Source: Sphyrna mokarran
Lineage: Eukaryota
Assembly: GCA_024679065.1 (NCBI GenBank)
Contig: JAGIQG010000011.1
Span: 41,478,001-41,542,000, forward strand
Direction: 5' to 3'
Length of the DNA: 64,000 nt
The notes beneath the pieces were generated by a model. It did no database searches. It saw only the letters and a list, made by a program, of their open reading frames with translations, and was not told the origin of the DNA. Position 1 is the first letter of the stretch. Every line of letters begins with the position of its first letter. This document shows, one piece after another, positions 30,694 through 50,255 of this stretch. Made by a program: the position numbers and the translations under genes.

Positions 30694-30776
30694 CATCGAC
30701 CATAGACTCCCCTAGAAACGAATCTGTGACAGAAACATCACACAAATTCGGTTCTACAGGGTATATATAGACGACG
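30694..30776 (-). ncRNA. mir10b: miR-10b precursor hairpin
   Basis: Mature TACCCTGTAGAACCGAATTTGTG at 30763-30741 (exact miR-10b). Star arm ACAGATTCGTTTCTAGGGGAGT at 30727-30706. Canonical position just 5' of HoxD4. Confidence 0.97.
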
Positions 30777-37857: not shown

Positions 37858-38109
<252 letters not shown>

Positions 38110-38470
38110 TTAAGAAAAAGTTAAAAGGTGCATTACCACACGCATCAATGCAATGGAAATTATGCAGTTATACAATTTCAGACAAATACATCCATGCTTA
38201 ATTCTCGAATAAAATCTTCAATAATTTGGATAGATGTGTTAAAATAATTTCCTAATGTTCACATTCAGAAGGTATGATGTAAAGCATGGTGTAATCTCTG
38301 ACATAATTGCTGTTATAATTAATATCAACAGTCTGATAATCGAAAATGATTCAAATTGTCATATTTTGATATGTATCCGCAAATATTTAGCTCATACTTG
38401 CTATTTTATTTCTCAACCTGAAAATCAATTCGATCAAATATAAAACGCATAAAAATGCCAAATACCGTAC

Positions 38471-38978
38471 CTTGGTTGAGGTGCATCTTTTTCATCCATG
38501 GGTATATCTGCATCTGTAGGGCTGGATCCTTGTCCAGTTGCTCACTTTCCGGTTTGGGGCTGTCCGTCCCCTTAGGATGTCCATCGTTAACCGGCGAAGT
38601 GTCCTGCTCACCGCTGTATGAATGATTGGACTCTGTGACAGTGGCCCCTGTCTTAATAGCACTGCCTGATGGGCTTATTAAAGATGCCGAGCAGAAGGCA
38701 GGATCAGGAGACTTCATTTTCATCCCAGATGAGCTATGAAAGGTGTTATTGGCTGTTTGCAGGTAGTTGGCAGACCTTTCACTGTCTCCACAAAGATTTG
38801 AGTTCGAGCGAGTCATGCTGAGGTCTATCCCGGTGTAATCATAGCCATACCTGGCAGACAGCAACGTCGACTCCCTAAAATGCTCGCCCACAGAAGCTGC
38901 ATTTCCATAACTCTGCAATTGATAATCGTGGCCATTTTGGTAGCGACCTGAGAAGGAGTTTAAAAAGTAGGAACTCAT
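38471..38978 (-). CDS. hoxd5: HoxD5 exon 1
   Basis: ATG at 38978 gives [21 protein letters not shown]...[11 protein letters not shown] (PG5 motifs) and [10 protein letters not shown]. Donor CAAG|GTACGG at 38471/38470. Confidence 0.92.
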
Positions 38979-42301: not shown

Positions 42302-43094
42302 CACAAACATATAGGCACACACACATGTGCATACTTACACATACAGATGCATATACACATAAGGATACACATATACATACAAACGCACGTGCATACTTAC
42401 ACACATAGGCGCATATATACACATAATTTCACATACAGGCATACATACTCATACAGACACACACATATAATTACACATATAGGCACACATACACATACGT
42501 ACAGACACATACACACAATTTTACATGCAGGTACACATACATAGACACACACAGACAACTTCACGTATAGGCACACATACACAAACACATACACATACAC
42601 ACATACAGGCACGCATACAAATACAGACACACACACACATACTTACATACACAGGCACAGCTACAGGCAAACATACATGCAACAGACACATATATAAACA
42701 TACACATTCGCATACATTCACATACATGCAGGCATCCTGACATATATATATACATACAGGCAAACATGTAAGCAGATATATACACACATATACATGCAGT
42801 CAATCATATAGGCACAGATATACATACAGACAAACACTAATGCACACATGCATAAAACACACATATACACACAGGCACACATGCATACAGACGCACATAC
42901 ATACACACATGCTTATACAAAAACACACATGCAAGTACATATATACATTCAATCAAGCATACACATACATAAATGCACAAACATGCAAACACACATAAAC
43001 ATACATGTATACAGCCACACAGACATATACACATAAACATACAGAAACACAAACATATACATGTACTCAGACATGAACGTACACATATACACAT
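42302..43094. repeat. Degenerate (CA/TA)n purine-pyrimidine low-complexity tract, about 800 bp
   Basis: Continuous cacatatacacata-type sequence with recurring catacaggca units. It generates the spurious H/T- and C/V-rich ORFs. Confidence 0.9.
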
Positions 43095-45599
43095 AGTGGT
43101 GTTCTTGCTGAATATTTTAGCACCTTTAGCAAAATTATTGGCTACGTGATATTGAAGAGCATACATTAAATAGTTAGACCTTAAAAGTTGTAACTGTCAC
43201 TTAAGTGGTAAACACGCCCATCTAATTTATTTATAATAATGTTTTCTGTTCATTTTACTTTTTTTGTATGATTATATTAAATGATGCATTTCAAGAAAAA
43301 AATGAAAATCACAAATCGGTCTTTGCAAATATTTTGAAAATCTCAGAATATAGGAATCGCATAAGCCCAGATACGCAGTTTGAGTTTATTGAAACTTAAA
43401 CCTAATCAGATAGTCATCTTGATTAGTAAATCTTGCATAAGAACCATTATCTTCGCCATGAAAACATAGAAATGAGCAAGGGCAATGTTTGAGAATTAAA
43501 CGAAAACATACTATAAACACAATCGCTATCAATTGTTGCGTGAGAATTGGGGTAGACTTAAACTGCTTTCTCAGTAGGACAACCAACACTAGCTTTCCAA
43601 ACCTAATACACTTCGGATATGAATACGTTTCTGTTTGTAGATCTGGTCTAAAAAATACACAAGTAATATCGGAACAGTTACAATGTTATAAATAATAACA
43701 TGATAGAATTGCAAATGTTATGATATCTCTATATAGTAATTTAATTCTAGTAATACTTTACAATCTCATTTTAAGCAGTCCCTGTGTCACTTCGACAAAA
43801 CACCAGATGTCTGTGCGATGACTGCAGACAAATACAGATCAGCCATTTTAAAACATTTCTTCCATTTGCACATGAATTTCAAATGCTTAAAATGAATCAA
43901 CATCATCATGACCATACGCTTCACAGATAATCAAACGAATGCATTGCCATTTTTACTCATTACTAGTAAAAAAATCTAGATACTGAAAGATCGAATTCAC
44001 AGTCATGTGACAGATACGACTATTTCAAATGGATGCAATTCCAAGCACCCTTATTTCACTCTGATGCTAAGTTATAAAAATCCTAAACAAATCTCTGGGA
44101 ATATTTAATCACCGGAAATGTATACAAACAAATGCCTTGAAAAAAATGACAACAATAAACAATTATTGATGTATTAATTTCTTGCTAACAAGTGCTTATT
44201 TCTGCAGCAATTTGTAACAGCTAAATAGAAACAAGGAGAGCCGGTGTTTTTCCAGTGATCGTTATGCTTTGCATCTTGAAAGCATTTACGATGTAATTGT
44301 TTCTACCGAATTAAAAACACTCCCAGTTTGCTGAGCTTAGTATTTATATATGTAGATATATAATATGCAATCCAATTTGAGCACAACTTGTTGCAATAAA
44401 TAAATCATCACTTGGGTCGCCGACATTATTTGAAACTTCTGCTTTAAAAAAAGTTAAACTAGCAACTGAATCATGACTAGCACATTGAAACCACAGTGTG
44501 ATATTGACTGCAGGGTCATTATTACAAGAGTACCACTCATTTGTGCAAAGTTCTGTCACGTGGTGGTCAGCATTACAATGTTGGCCAAACATTACTCCTA
44601 AATTCGGATCATTTCTGTGATTACTGTACGGGATTTTTCGAATCATTAACACAAGGTGCATCATTCATCCCTACAATCAATCCTCAGCGTAAAAGTGCCC
44701 AACTAGTGCCCTCGTCCGTAAGATGCTAAATGCGGAAAAAACACACATTGGCAAAAGGGGAACCTTGACGCCAATCGCCAACAATTGATCGGATATCGCT
44801 CCCGCAAAATAGCAACAACAATTCCTATTCCTACTGGTAATAACAATAATCATTATCCCATGAGTATACTATGCAATCTGATTAATCTCTGCCTTGGATC
44901 ATATGAGCAAATGTCAGCTGCTTTTTGGTGAAGTTTTCATATCAAAGATAGACGCGATTCGCAATTCCCCGTCCTAGCGCGGAATATAAATATTTAATTC
45001 ACCTGCGCTACAGCCAGCCTTTGAATTGAAATGACCACCCGGACCCGGTTCCAATGTAACGTTCACAAATCTATCTTGTTCGTACATGTCGAACGCTCTT
45101 CGACCTCCCAAACAGTTGCTTGCAACTCGACCAACGAAACAAACGCCCTTCCCTCCTCTGTACAGCAGTGTTATCTGCAACAACAGAGCGTAAGCAAAAC
45201 ACAGCACTTACCCGGCACAGGGCGCTTCCCCAGAATAGTAACCAGCTGAATATTGTATTCCATTTCTACTTTTTCGATCAATAAAGGGACTTAAAATAAA
45301 GGAGTAAAGCGAAAACTGAAGGGTAAATGAAAGACTGTAAACAGACGTCAGAGGTCTGCGAGAGTGATCAGGTTGCTAAATCCCAGCATGGGTCGAATGA
45401 CTTCCTCATAGTTTTACAGGAAAAGGCTGAAATGCGTGAATACAGCGGAAAGTGTCCTTTTTTGCTAGCAGCTAGCGTCAAATACCAACGACAAAAGCAG
45501 GCAAGGGGAGATACTGACAGAAAAGACGATTTGAGACGAGTTAGCTGCGGAATGCAGTGAAATATTCACAAGGGAAATCATGAAAAGGCCATGAACGCT

Positions 45600-45720
45600 G
45601 TTACTAGATTCACATGATCAGTGGCAGCCAATAGGAAAAGAGTCTCCGTCGTAAAAGGTCCATTACAAAGTTGTAAATTTTCTTCAAACAAAAAGGAATT
45701 CGCAGCAATTCCTTGCGGAT
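45600..45720 (-). promoter_or_regulatory. Conserved Hox8/7-6 intergenic element (four-cluster-sequence-like orphan promoter)
   Basis: Minus strand GAAAATTTACAACTTTGTAATGGACCTTTTACGAC...ATTGGCTGCCACTGATCATGTG, recalled as similar to the element between PG7/8 and PG6 in other Hox clusters. Contains E-box-N11-CCAAT. Confidence 0.6.
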
Positions 45721-48084
45721 TTCACAAGTACAGCTCGCAAGCGCCATGTTTCCTTTAACGAGTTCTTTGCTGCAGCTATTTGTTATCGTGTGTATTGTAA
45801 CGAACGCCTTAACTAACTATATAAGCGGAAATGCTGCGACAACATAAGGAGAAACCTCTCCCAATGCAGAAGATATTCCGCAGTCCAGCAATCAAATCAC
45901 TGCTATTTGTGTGTGCGCATCTAGATGTTTGTTAGTTCATGGTTCGAATAAGTCAAAAGAGAGACATTCGATTTTTTTTTGGGGGGGAGAAAGCAAAATC
46001 AACAAATGATTAAATGTGGGTTGATCACAATCTCCAATAGCGCCAGTTATGCAGCAGAAATCCACTTTTTTTTATTGCCCTGATTTTCACAGCCCACTCG
46101 ATATGGCCAAGTGGAAATAAACCAAGTATAGCAAAACTACGGCGATTTCCTTCTTTTAAATGGCAATCAATAATAAAAGCATTTACTAATTTATGCTAAA
46201 TGTTGTATGGTATATCCTTCACAGGTGAGAGATTGAAGATTAAATATCGGTGTGCGTATACAGATAACTAATTATATGTTGCACTTCCATTCCAATCACA
46301 GGGAGTATTGTATTATATTTCTCGTGTATCCATTGTGAGTTGAAAGTGGATCTATATTAAATACAAGAACACATGCCACTGGTCACTAAGGCTTGTCTTA
46401 ACCAGATAAAATAACTCCGGCGCTGGGTTTACGCATTTAAACCATTTAAATCAGTCGGCTCTGTAATTTCTCCCTTTAGTGGCGGTGAGCGGACTCGGCA
46501 CCTAATGCCCCGTCGTGTCCAATTCACGGCGACCCCATACATTGAGAGGCGAAAAAAAAATGATGGTTAAAATTTATATTTTCCCCTTAACCGTATGCTT
46601 TTCGCTGATTTAATTCGAGTGAAAGGCTATCTATCACTCGGTTACCTCCGGTTTTGATGCTTTGATCTGATTTTACGGGGGAAAAAATCAAAAACAGCGT
46701 AACCAGATACGTGCCGGTAACTCATTTTTAATTTATGATAAGAATAAAACTAGTACAGGAGCAGCCTGCAATTGAAGGCATTCTGAATAGAACGTTCGGC
46801 CGTGGAAGTTACCCTCAGTGTGAAAAGGGAAAGACTCGGTCTGGGGTGGATGCTGTTGGAGAATCAATGGTGGAAGAATTTTTACAGAGGTTTTAAAAAA
46901 AACAAATGAAGGTTCTTGAAGAACCACATTGAATATTTTGCAATGATTCAGGGGAGATCTTTTAATACATGTTTGATTTTTTTCATCTCCATTCTTCATT
47001 AAAAATCTGAGGAAGCAACGCTGATCTCAAAATACGAATTCCACCCAATGCTTCGCTGTTCAGAGCATCATCTTTCAGGGAAAACAGGCGATTCCTCACA
47101 TGTGATAAGGCTATCAATACGGCCTAGATCTACCCTGAATGTGCGGTCATTTTGGTGGCCGCTTTTCCGGTGAACACCCGCATTTGACCGTCCGATTTGC
47201 AAATGGGAGCCGATACAAAATTAACTTTTTTTTAAAATGAGGAACATTTTGCTAACAGAGTGAATGAAACTTTAAATATACATGTTTTCTAAAAACGGAA
47301 CGTAGTTCAAAAATATTTGGAGGGGAGTGGTGAAATCATCTGGTTGTAAAGCAAGAGAGACTTATGAACACTGTTCATTTGGAACGGAGAATTCCCTTCA
47401 AATACGAAAAGGCAATTTCCAGAATAAGCATTTTTTTCCGAGTTGATTTATTCTGTGAAATTATTTACCAGTTTGGATCAGGCGCCGACTGTAATAGCCA
47501 ATGCAGTTTGCAAAATATATTTTGCCCTAAAATAGTGCGCCGAGCTTAGAATAGTAGAATTTTAGAACTGCTGCTTGCCTTGAACGAGCTAATTGCTATT
47601 CATATTCTCAAACTACCTGATAAAATGAGAATGTTGTCTTTTAGTTATCTAACATATAATTCAATTCGATTGCAAACCCAAAGCTGTATATGGGGGCAGC
47701 AGAGATGGTTGAAGTTATGGATTCTGGAACCCATCGGTTAAACGTTATCTTCTGCAAATAAACGCGCGATTTCAATTGTTTATTTAATATTTATATAATG
47801 TTTGCTTCGTTTTTCTCTCCCGCTTTTGATTGTTTCCTGTCTGTTCTTATCAATACTTTTCCTTAATTTAGGCTTGTCATGCGCGCAAAGGAAGAGACTG
47901 GAAATTTTCAATTCCTACGGTTGCGGTTTGCATGCAGCACCCCGCGCTGATTCTATGAGAGTTTCGACTTGGCCTAATCGCCGATTAAGGTAAATGTAAT
48001 GGGAAGCTGGAAGGTTCTTCGATAGCTGAAGATTTTGCTTTCGCTCCCAGCTTTTACGGCAGGGAGGAATAAAATGGAGGCCAG

Positions 48085-48255
48085 AAATCCGCAGTTTGTC
48101 CAGTGATTTGTAGTATTAGAACTTTATTGTCGGTTTTACGAGATTTGCTGATATACGTGTACAGTAGACCGCAGTTAAACACCAAACACTAACTTTTACA
48201 GCGTCGGTTTAGCCACACATGAGCCAGGCATGTGATCTGCTCAGCCAATGGTCAT
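48085..48255 (-). pseudogene. Relic HoxD7 promoter and 5' UTR (no ATG, no ORF)
   Basis: Minus strand AATCTCGTAAAACCGACAATAAAG...CTACAAATCA resembles the HoxB7/A7 5' leader. E-box-N10-CCAAT at 48229-48249. Sits directly 3' of HoxD8, where PG7 would be. Confidence 0.6.
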
Positions 48256-48872
48256 TCGGAAGACTTTTAACTTGAGGCACAGATAAACTAATATTCTAAT
48301 CATCGGCTATATCATTAACTTTTATAACTACATATAAAGAATTACGCCATCTTCAGGCTTTTGCACCCATGTAACAGAGCGGCGGTGCGGTATGGGGAGA
48401 CAAGCACCTTGTGGCCACGGAGCTAAACAAACACAAATACACGACATCTGATTTCAATGCGAGGAATACAACCTCCAAACAGTCACAGAAAGCTGGCGAG
48501 GTAGTGACTCAGTCACTCGGGCTAACTTTCTCAATCCGAACACAATGAGTTTCTACTCCTTTTGGATCTACTTTTGGAGATACTCGTCGTTAAATGAAAC
48601 AAGTAGACAATTAAATTTAATCAACATTTATTAAGTTAATCACATTCGACCATCATAAAAAGTGACTATTGCCGCGGAATACCTTGTAATTCATTTTTTT
48701 TTGCTTGTGTTTATAATATGCGTATCGGAGATAGGTAATGGTTGAGAATTTCCAGCCGCAATACACCACCAATTATTTCACACGCACAGTAATTAAGACA
48801 CATCGTAAGTGCACGGTTCTTTTTCTCTATCATTAATTGTGTTCGCAATACATTCCAAATTATCCAATCTAT

Positions 48873-48893
48873 TAGGCAGTTCATGTTGTTGGG
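48873..48893 (-). promoter_or_regulatory. miR-196 target site in the HoxD8 3' UTR
   Basis: Plus strand TAGGCAGTTCATGTTGTTGGG versus miR-196a TAGGTAGTTTCATGTTGTTGGG: one G:U pair and one bulged base. It lies upstream of an AATAAA at 48632-48627. Confidence 0.85.
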
Positions 48894-49302
48894 TATAATC
48901 ACAAAAATGCGAAATAAAATCAGCAAACTAAATCAATCACCATATCATTTTATATTTTCGTCTTATTAAAAAGCAATAAAATCTTTATTCCAAATGGCTG
49001 TTTCTTTTGAGTTTATTTTTTGCCGCTTTCCACTTTTAAAGGGAGCGGCAAAATTCTATGGGAGGGCTGATTTGTCAAGGTGTGATGGGTGGGGAGGGGG
49101 GAATGTTCAAATTATGCACACAGGATTCATTAGAAATAATGTCGAATTAAGGCTCTAAAGAACTTCGATAACAATAAACAGGTGGATTGTTTACATCGAG
49201 CCAACCATGGCTGTGTTGGAAGATTCAATCCCCTCAACACGTTTAACAGTGGAATTAGCACAAACTGAATGACGTTTCGCTTGGAGGCCAAAGGGGGTAA
49301 AG

Positions 49303-49598
49303 TTACTTGGTTTGTTTTTCTGTTGTCTCCTGCTCGGGGTCTTCCTGTTCTTTCTTCACCTCTTCCTCCTCCTCGTCGTTCCGGGAGGTGGGAAATTTGT
49401 CCTTATTGTTTTCCTTTTTCCATTTCATCCTTCTGTTCTGAAACCAAATCTTCACCTGCCTCTCAGTCAGTCCTAGGGCATGTGAAACCTCGATCCTTCG
49501 CTTCCGAGTCAGATACGGATTGAAGAGGAATTCCTTTTCCAACTCCAGGGTTTGGAAACGGCTGTAAGTTTGTCTCCCTCTGCGTCTCCCGGGCGCTG
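49303..49598 (-). CDS. hoxd8: HoxD8 exon 2 (homeobox); spliced protein 240 aa
   Basis: Acceptor TTCTTTAG|CAG at 49599/49598. [57 protein letters not shown]; the SRFQT arm is HoxD8-type. Confidence 0.95.
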
Positions 49599-49828
49599 CT
49601 AAAGAACACGAGAATCACAGAAAGACAATCAGTACGGGGGGAATCAAATGCACACAACCAAAGAGTGACACACATAGGAACAAATCTTTGCTTTGAACGG
49701 CCATGCCATACAAAGAAAGTGCTCCTATAAAAGCCGACAAGACTATTATAGACCGCATTAAAACACCTTGGCGATTTAACTGAGCAGCAGTAAAACGTGA
49801 GATGGAAGCTAATTCTAATATATCCAAC

Positions 49829-50255
49829 CTTGAGGTCTCATCCAGGGAAACATTTGAGTAGGAGACGAGTTCTGATTTAAGTGTTCTGGTTCTTCGCCAA
49901 TATTACTGCTGGACGATTTACAGTCAGGATATTGTACCAGATCGGCCTCTTGCTGTGTCGTAAAAATTTGCTGTCTTTGTAAGTTATCGTATCCGTAAAA
50001 TTTAGAGGGGTCACCGTGACACGTAATTCCACAAGGATTCTGCTGAAAGCCAGCGTTAGGAAGTGCAGATGTCCCATGGTGGTAAAAATCTTGAACTTGA
50101 GCTGGGTGCTGGAAGCCTGCGCCGGTGCTGGGACCATAGACGACAGTGTGTCTACTGGTCACGTCCTGTGGAAACCGGCAGTCGTAGTAAGTGGGACTGA
50201 GAGCTTCTCCGGGCTTGTACTTGGAGTAGAATGGATTCACAAAATATGAACTCAT
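49829..50255 (-). CDS. hoxd8: HoxD8 exon 1
   Basis: ATG at 50255 gives [14 protein letters not shown]...[11 protein letters not shown]...QMFPWMRPQ. Donor CAAG|GTTGGA at 49829/49828. Confidence 0.95.

Follow-up and report, generated by a model that had tools for sequence, protein, structure and literature searches.

Traces of lost Hox genes have been reported as pseudogenes, such as psi-HoxD12 of a caecilian (PMC4470032), psi-hoxa2b of medaka (PMC5831782) and hoxb7a of cichlids (PMC2080641). As described in the accessible parts of these papers, they represent recent, lineage-specific losses in which the coding part is still recognisable. The element considered here, from the HoxD cluster of the shark Sphyrna mokarran, resembles them in that the remains of a lost paralogue appear to have been left in its slot, but it consists mainly of a regulatory head. 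To our knowledge, a HoxD7 gene is known in no jawed vertebrate; the loss would therefore be far older than those that gave rise to the pseudogenes, and the former presence of the gene has so far been deduced from gene counts alone.

Paralogous conserved non-coding sequences of Hox clusters are likewise a known kind of element (Matsunami et al. 2010, as cited in PMC3595034; PMC8330917; PMC8293171; PMC2746220). In the available portions of these sources, they resemble the shark element in being non-coding, in having been kept between clusters since the genome duplications and in containing Cdx-type sites. The promoters of HOXA-AS3 and HOXB-AS3, as excerpted in PMC8330917, drive antisense RNAs between intact genes, unlike an element that stands in an empty slot. 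Surveys of Hox conserved elements may already list the shark element as an unnamed block; the searchable literature, outside which the main surveys of this kind lie, yielded no account of a HoxD7 remnant. A four-cluster sequence, H8/7-6, was reportedly described by Kim et al. in 2000; we presume that it more likely corresponds to the neighbourhood of a second promoter-like module at 45.6 kb, discussed below.

On balance, we read the segment 48250-48090 of the minus strand as promoter and leader motifs of paralog group 7 (PG7) standing in an empty slot, which selection is likely to have kept as a cis-regulatory module acting on nearby HoxD genes.

The interval between HoxD8 and HoxD5

The window analysed is a stretch of 64,000 nucleotides, on the minus strand of which a six-frame scan located seven homeoboxes. 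From gene order and typical sequence features we take six of the genes to be HoxD10, HoxD9, HoxD8, HoxD4, HoxD3 and HoxD2. HoxD5 (37858-38978, minus strand) was recognised by its 98% identity to Hox-D5 of Mustelus asterias. The seven homeoboxes, this identity and mir-10 at 30.7 kb (30699-30770, the sole Rfam match in the window) together identify the window as the HoxD cluster of a shark related closely to Mustelus, from which both HoxD6 and HoxD7 are missing. The element is located about 1 kb past the stop codon of the two-exon HoxD8 gene (49303-50255, minus strand), on the same strand and upstream of HoxD5, i.e. between PG8 and PG6/5. Elsewhere in the gap separating HoxD8 from HoxD5, about 700 bases (42336-43051) are occupied by a degenerate CA/TG-rich simple repeat.

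A sequence-only reading of this DNA had proposed that the promoter and 5' leader of HoxD7 persist here ahead of a lost start codon. All the motifs that it quoted are present on the minus strand: ATTGG at 48249 and CACATG at 48234 with a 10-base spacer between them, TTTGGTGTTTAA at 48186, the CTCGTAAAACCGAC block at 48142, ACAAATCA at 48111, TTCAGCTATCGAAGAACCTTCC at 48030 and CAGGTAGTT at 47619. A second E-box on that strand, CATGTG at 48221 (48216-48221), had gone unmentioned.

The combination of ATTGG (reverse CCAAT), 10 bases and the E-box CACATG (48229-48249, minus strand) corresponds by pattern to a Hox proximal-promoter module. Defined as ATTGG followed after 10-11 bases by CACATG, CATGTG or CACGTG, the module occurs six times on the minus strand of the window, as compared with a mean of 0.115 and a maximum of 2 in 200 shuffles. 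Four of the six lie 83-185 bases before the ATG of HoxD9, HoxD4, HoxD3 and HoxD2, and it is these matches at intact genes that are informative, since the pattern was defined after the orphan site had been seen. The two others, at 48249 and 45632, are orphans. HoxD5 carries a copy with one mismatch. At 48.2 kb, the distance from the module to the presumptive start-codon slot (155-158 bases) falls within the range observed for the intact HoxD genes. Unlike HoxD9, HoxD5, HoxD4, HoxD3 and HoxD2, HoxD8 (upstream of 50255) has no such module within 400 bases of its ATG, one mismatch allowed. The HoxD9 promoter (57989-57954) carries a symmetric version, with ATTGG on both strands, each 10 bases from a central CACGTG. 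A pattern scan of metagenomes gave five loci, all devoid of a Hox gene, and these were discarded.

In mouse, Hoxa promoters, that of Hoxa7 included, depend on such E-boxes; the E-box of Hoxa9 is flanked by a CAAT box, and the activity of the Hoxa7 promoter is lost only when both of its E-boxes are mutated (Akirtava et al., bioRxiv 10.1101/2022.02.10.479744, available text). With two E-boxes the shark element is similar to mouse Hoxa7, a comparison that concerns their count alone. The 1 kb preceding the ATG of mouse Hoxd4 is described as lacking promoter activity (PMC3185001, in part), although shark HoxD4 carries the module; hence, the module alone is no proof of a promoter.

Between module and leader, a 23-base block, TGTTTGGTGTTTAACTG / AGTTAGTGTTTGGTGTTTAACTG (48172-48194, minus strand), has a copy matching at 21 of 23 positions at 33823-33801 (minus strand); none of 100 shuffles gave any match. 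This copy of the AGTTAGTGTTTGGTGTTTAACTG block is situated 4.5 kb before the ATG of HoxD4 and upstream of mir-10. According to the accessible part of PMC3185001, a distal promoter of mouse Hoxd4 is located 5.2 kb upstream.

The ancestry of the leader itself (48095-48155, minus strand), which contains TCGTAAA, CAATAAA and ACAAATCA, could be assessed with two independent references. The first is a 23-base primer for the 5' UTR of HoxB7, printed in a table of PMC3038165, which begins with a 14-base block of the window. It matches at 19 of 23 positions at 48142, the first 15 being contiguous, and the next best place reaches 16. Matches of at least 19 are expected by chance 0.0016 times on both strands of the window, a figure that overstates the surprise because it was the shared 14-mer that led to the paper; the weight lies in the match being labelled HoxB7 5' UTR. 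Control primers from the same table, for HoxB6 and HoxB1, reached 16 and 17, respectively, at scattered places. The product size given there for the HoxB7 primer (440-460) fits a site about 50 bases before the ATG, and the shark site lies 48-51 bases before the slot.

The second reference is provided by chondrichthyan HoxA7 models, at least five of which (among 15 of the 19 members of the shark HoxA7 cluster) bear a 24-residue N-terminal extension, namely those of Heptranchias, Stegostoma, Amblyraja, Callorhinchus and Heterodontus. Since these models start 24 residues before the true start, they carry the translated 5' leader. In the RefSeq entries (P0267, P0275-P0277 and P0279), four of which are flagged as low quality, the extension precedes the conserved MSSSYY start and is probably an annotation artefact. 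The one scored, P0267 from Heptranchias, matches 48155-48117 with 9 of 13 residues identical (tblastn E 0.002), the next best of 127,918 positions reaching 6. With indels permitted, the alignment extends over 48155-48095 and scores 32.1 bits, versus 22.8 at the next place. Adding the first eight coding residues of HoxA7 brings no gain in score, and the alignment stops at 48095, in agreement with the proposal that similarity ends at the position of the start codon. In contrast, comparison with the six intact HoxD leaders gave scores of 19-29, none above background (mean 21.2, sd 3.8). In another model, P0236 from Rhinoraja longicauda, exon 1 of HoxB7 is joined to a homeobox exon of PG5 type, which may reflect a trans-gene splice in the HoxB cluster.

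The primer, the translated leader and the CCAAT/E-box module, in the expected slot and on the expected strand, support an origin of the element from the promoter and 5' leader of a PG7 gene, as the sequence-only reading had suggested. Together with near-identity of the element elsewhere (see below), they point to a lost HoxD7 of which promoter and leader remain, and a Hox7 ancestry of the element appears very probable. The homology consists of the 23-base primer and the 24-residue leader; paralogy of the CCAAT/E-box part to PG7 is deduced from its adjacency.

As the leader alignment ends at 48095 and coding residues add nothing, the start-codon slot is placed at 48094-48089 of the minus strand, in the register of that alignment. 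It reads CTG CGG, and the next ATG downstream is at 47933. Searches for exon 1 of HoxA7 and HoxB7 by tblastn, HMM and decayed profile detected no trace, the scores of the exon 1 profiles being reached by 14-124 of 150 shuffles. Neither an ATG nor an exon 1 with hexapeptide, as a functional Hox7 gene should have, is found at the slot, and no miR-196 site, scanned for with the miR-196 seed, occurs on the minus strand between 48090 and 45800. The suggested loss of start codon and first exon is borne out. In leader sequence, number of E-boxes, cluster position and strand, the element is thus like the promoter and leader of HoxA7 and HoxB7, from which it differs in being devoid of an ATG, an exon 1 and an intact homeobox and in having AATAAA (48128) where the HoxB7 primer has ACTAAA.

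Conservation and the fate of the probable relic

Sixteen runs are listed as containing the stretch; none is recorded as RNA and ten are guessed to be. Four sequencing runs, guessed to be RNA but possibly containing DNA, were compared with 46500-49400; their contigs show neither start nor strand. A contig of run X3, from one study, covers 48103-48282 with 2 differences in 180 positions (depth 6.9), and a contig of run X2, from a second study and another organism, covers 48165-48352 with 1 difference in 188 (depth 3.1). Pieces of X2 located 0.6-1.4 kb downstream show 11 differences in 122 and 14 in 177, whereas its HoxD8 3' UTR piece (3 substitutions and 4 gaps in 323, depth 303) is about as conserved as the element. 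Runs X1 and X11 contribute short pieces off the element only, and their missing cover there carries no weight. Record 12 of X2 was left out, as its loose letters have matches in other parts of the window, making its placement doubtful. No splice joint was found between 46500 and 49400 in any of the four runs, two of which have low cover. The near-identity in two organisms modestly supports constraint on the element. Cartilaginous fish evolve slowly, as stated in the accessible part of PMC2746220, so that conservation is a weaker indication of function.

This slow change is also an argument for a first alternative, namely that the element is a true Hox7 relic but inert, and that it persists owing to the slow evolution of shark Hox sequences in a CpG-rich, probably unmethylated region. 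CpG observed/expected is indeed near 1 over most of 49000-44500, and the failure to detect a spliced transcript in the four runs would fit. An inert relic would, however, hardly account for a leader that is still recognisable while the exon 1 behind it is gone, nor for the single difference of run X2 over the element against the many in its downstream pieces. We regard inertness as unlikely, and retention of the element for a regulatory role as probable.

Alternatively, the relic may have been co-opted for the 3' end of HoxD8, with AATAAA at 48128 serving as a distal poly(A) signal and the low RNA cover reflecting read-through from the HoxD8 3' UTR. AATAAA is the canonical hexamer, which the HoxB7 primer does not share. 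A miR-196-type 7-mer at 48505 (minus strand, same seed), some 800 bases after the HoxD8 stop and 250 before the module, suggests a long 3' UTR; in addition, the contig of X2 extends some 100 bases beyond the CCAAT box on its upstream side, a segment that a transcript started at the module would leave uncovered. The contig of X3 stops at 48103, some 20 bases past AATAAA; a single contig end carries no inference. This explanation leaves the kept CCAAT box and both E-boxes unaccounted for; three other AATAAA hexamers (49017, 48989 and 48632) are nearer to HoxD8, and the runs may hold DNA. We consider it rather improbable.

The reading frame behind the start-codon slot

The frame of the slot is open for 59 codons (47915-48094, minus strand), a length reached by 2991 of 106,523 non-exon starts (2.8%). 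Within it, 48058-47942 (minus strand) encodes a stretch with 11 of 39 residues identical to homeodomain residues 5-43. It is the top-scoring homeodomain-like segment of the window outside the homeoboxes (66 vs 62), with 0, 4 and 3 sequences scoring as high under three matrices when the 2.3-kb gap was shuffled 1000 times, and its identity to the homeoboxes of the window falls at codon positions 1 and 2. These observations could be taken to mean that the slot belongs, or once belonged, to a shortened gene, in which the removal of most of exon 1 and of the intron fused the start region to the homeobox without a change of frame, and from which a CTG-initiated 59-residue peptide may still be produced. 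Against such a gene, both nhmmer and gapped nucleotide alignment failed to give a match to the trace, and the homeodomain HMM gives it 3.7 bits (E 5). In decayed-profile scans, it is ahead of the runner-up by 0.6-1 bit and fails at low decay (88, 6 and 1 of 150 shuffles reached it at three decay levels). F20, W48, F49, N51 and R53, which include the invariant residues of helix 3, are absent in register. Searches with the 59-residue peptide retrieved no Pfam family, no atlas match, no real homologue and, when blind, no homeodomain. Four phmmer matches to the peptide all have several repeated stretches, and the three examined are repeat proteins without a homeodomain. An N-R-R triplet near homeodomain residues 51-53 was given no weight, as it is out of frame and was missed by the indel-tolerant scan. 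Moreover, the trace surfaced after several tests, with PG7 and PG6 queries in two gaps. We regard a shortened gene as very unlikely.

Whether the trace is a real, decayed homeobox is a separate matter. As it begins about 35 bases behind the slot, it would require the deletion of exon 1 and the intron, and we find it doubtful that it is a genuine remnant. The sequence-only reading had reported no homeobox remnant, which is too firm: HMM and nucleotide comparisons are weak, yet the protein-level shuffles make the stretch suggestive, and the coding-like trace to which it had drawn attention lies inside this weak homeodomain-like stretch. A still readable HoxD7 fossil, with promoter, leader, decayed start codon and decayed in-frame homeobox brought together by a single deletion of exon 1 and intron, is a tentative possibility that we do not expect to hold. 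If it were true and the same junction were present in HoxC, PG7 would have disappeared from the C and D clusters in one event.

Convergent likeness, produced by chance clustering of common Hox motifs or by local copying of another HoxD promoter, might be suspected because the CCAAT/E-box module is common to many paralog groups and the 23-base block recurs at 33.8 kb, but is extremely unlikely given that the HoxB7 primer and the HoxA7 leader, as independent PG7 references, show a colinear match as far as the ATG slot and that the element is unlike the six intact HoxD leaders.

A proposed regulatory head in the service of its neighbours

Returning to the reading of the element as a retained HoxD7 head, the slot would have housed, following the cluster duplications, a HoxD7 gene or an already broken ancestor of it, of which the coding part disappeared and the regulatory head was kept. 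NF-Y would bind the CCAAT box and bHLH/USF-type factors the E-boxes, while Cdx or posterior Hox proteins would bind the TCGTAAA/CAATAAA pair; all these assignments are presumed from known binding motifs. A Cdx/Hox enhancer or an lncRNA promoter had been put forward as candidate roles by the sequence-only reading. The module could then act as an enhancer or as a weak upstream promoter feeding long HoxD5/HoxD4/HoxD3 transcripts, and would have been kept because factor binding supports transcription of the neighbours, most likely of these long anterior transcripts.

A splice donor proposed at 47617 is unsupported: GTAGTT is devoid of the G at +5, the site is not among the donor-like ones and no joint in the four runs uses it. 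The only GGTRAGT donor between HoxD8 and HoxD5 is at 45212. It ends a stretch, MEYNIQLVTILG... (45213-45263, minus strand), which in RefSeq isoforms is joined inside HoxD5 exon 1. Long HoxD5 isoforms starting with MEYNIQLVTILG are found in Mustelus asterias and Scyliorhinus torazame; with an alternative N-terminus and 258-259 residues, they make up 4 of the 13 members of the HoxD5 cluster. Because their start maps to 45263-45213, an upstream exon is documented some 370 bases downstream of the second orphan ATTGG/E-box module (45611-45632, minus strand), itself 2.6 kb downstream of the element. A further non-coding exon from 48.2 kb may be compatible with the protein models. The long isoforms of S. 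torazame are filed under Hox-D3a, which suggests a shared HoxD5/HoxD3 transcription unit.

A parallel is the shared upstream promoter of HoxC6, HoxC5 and HoxC4, from which, as excerpted in PMC1831499, one exon in the 8-to-6 gap is spliced to the anterior genes. The long shark HoxD5 isoforms are alike in this respect; the exon that stops at 45213 is the one for which the role is documented, rather than the element at 48.2 kb. The second module was also considered as a ghost HoxD6 leader and rejected, as the HoxB6 primer reached at best 15 of 23 in the parts of the HoxD8-HoxD5 gap scanned, i.e. background level. The leader of mouse Hoxa6 is reported, in the available text of bioRxiv 10.1101/2022.02.10.479744, to be without an E-box.

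A leader that matches both HoxA7 and HoxB7 would be direct sequence evidence for the former occupant of the slot. It makes testable whether the C and D clusters lost PG7 in one event or in two, a number that bears on the debated branching order of the four Hox clusters. It also makes testable the idea that promoters of lost genes are kept because their neighbours depend on them, which is one of the reasons proposed for the compactness of Hox clusters.
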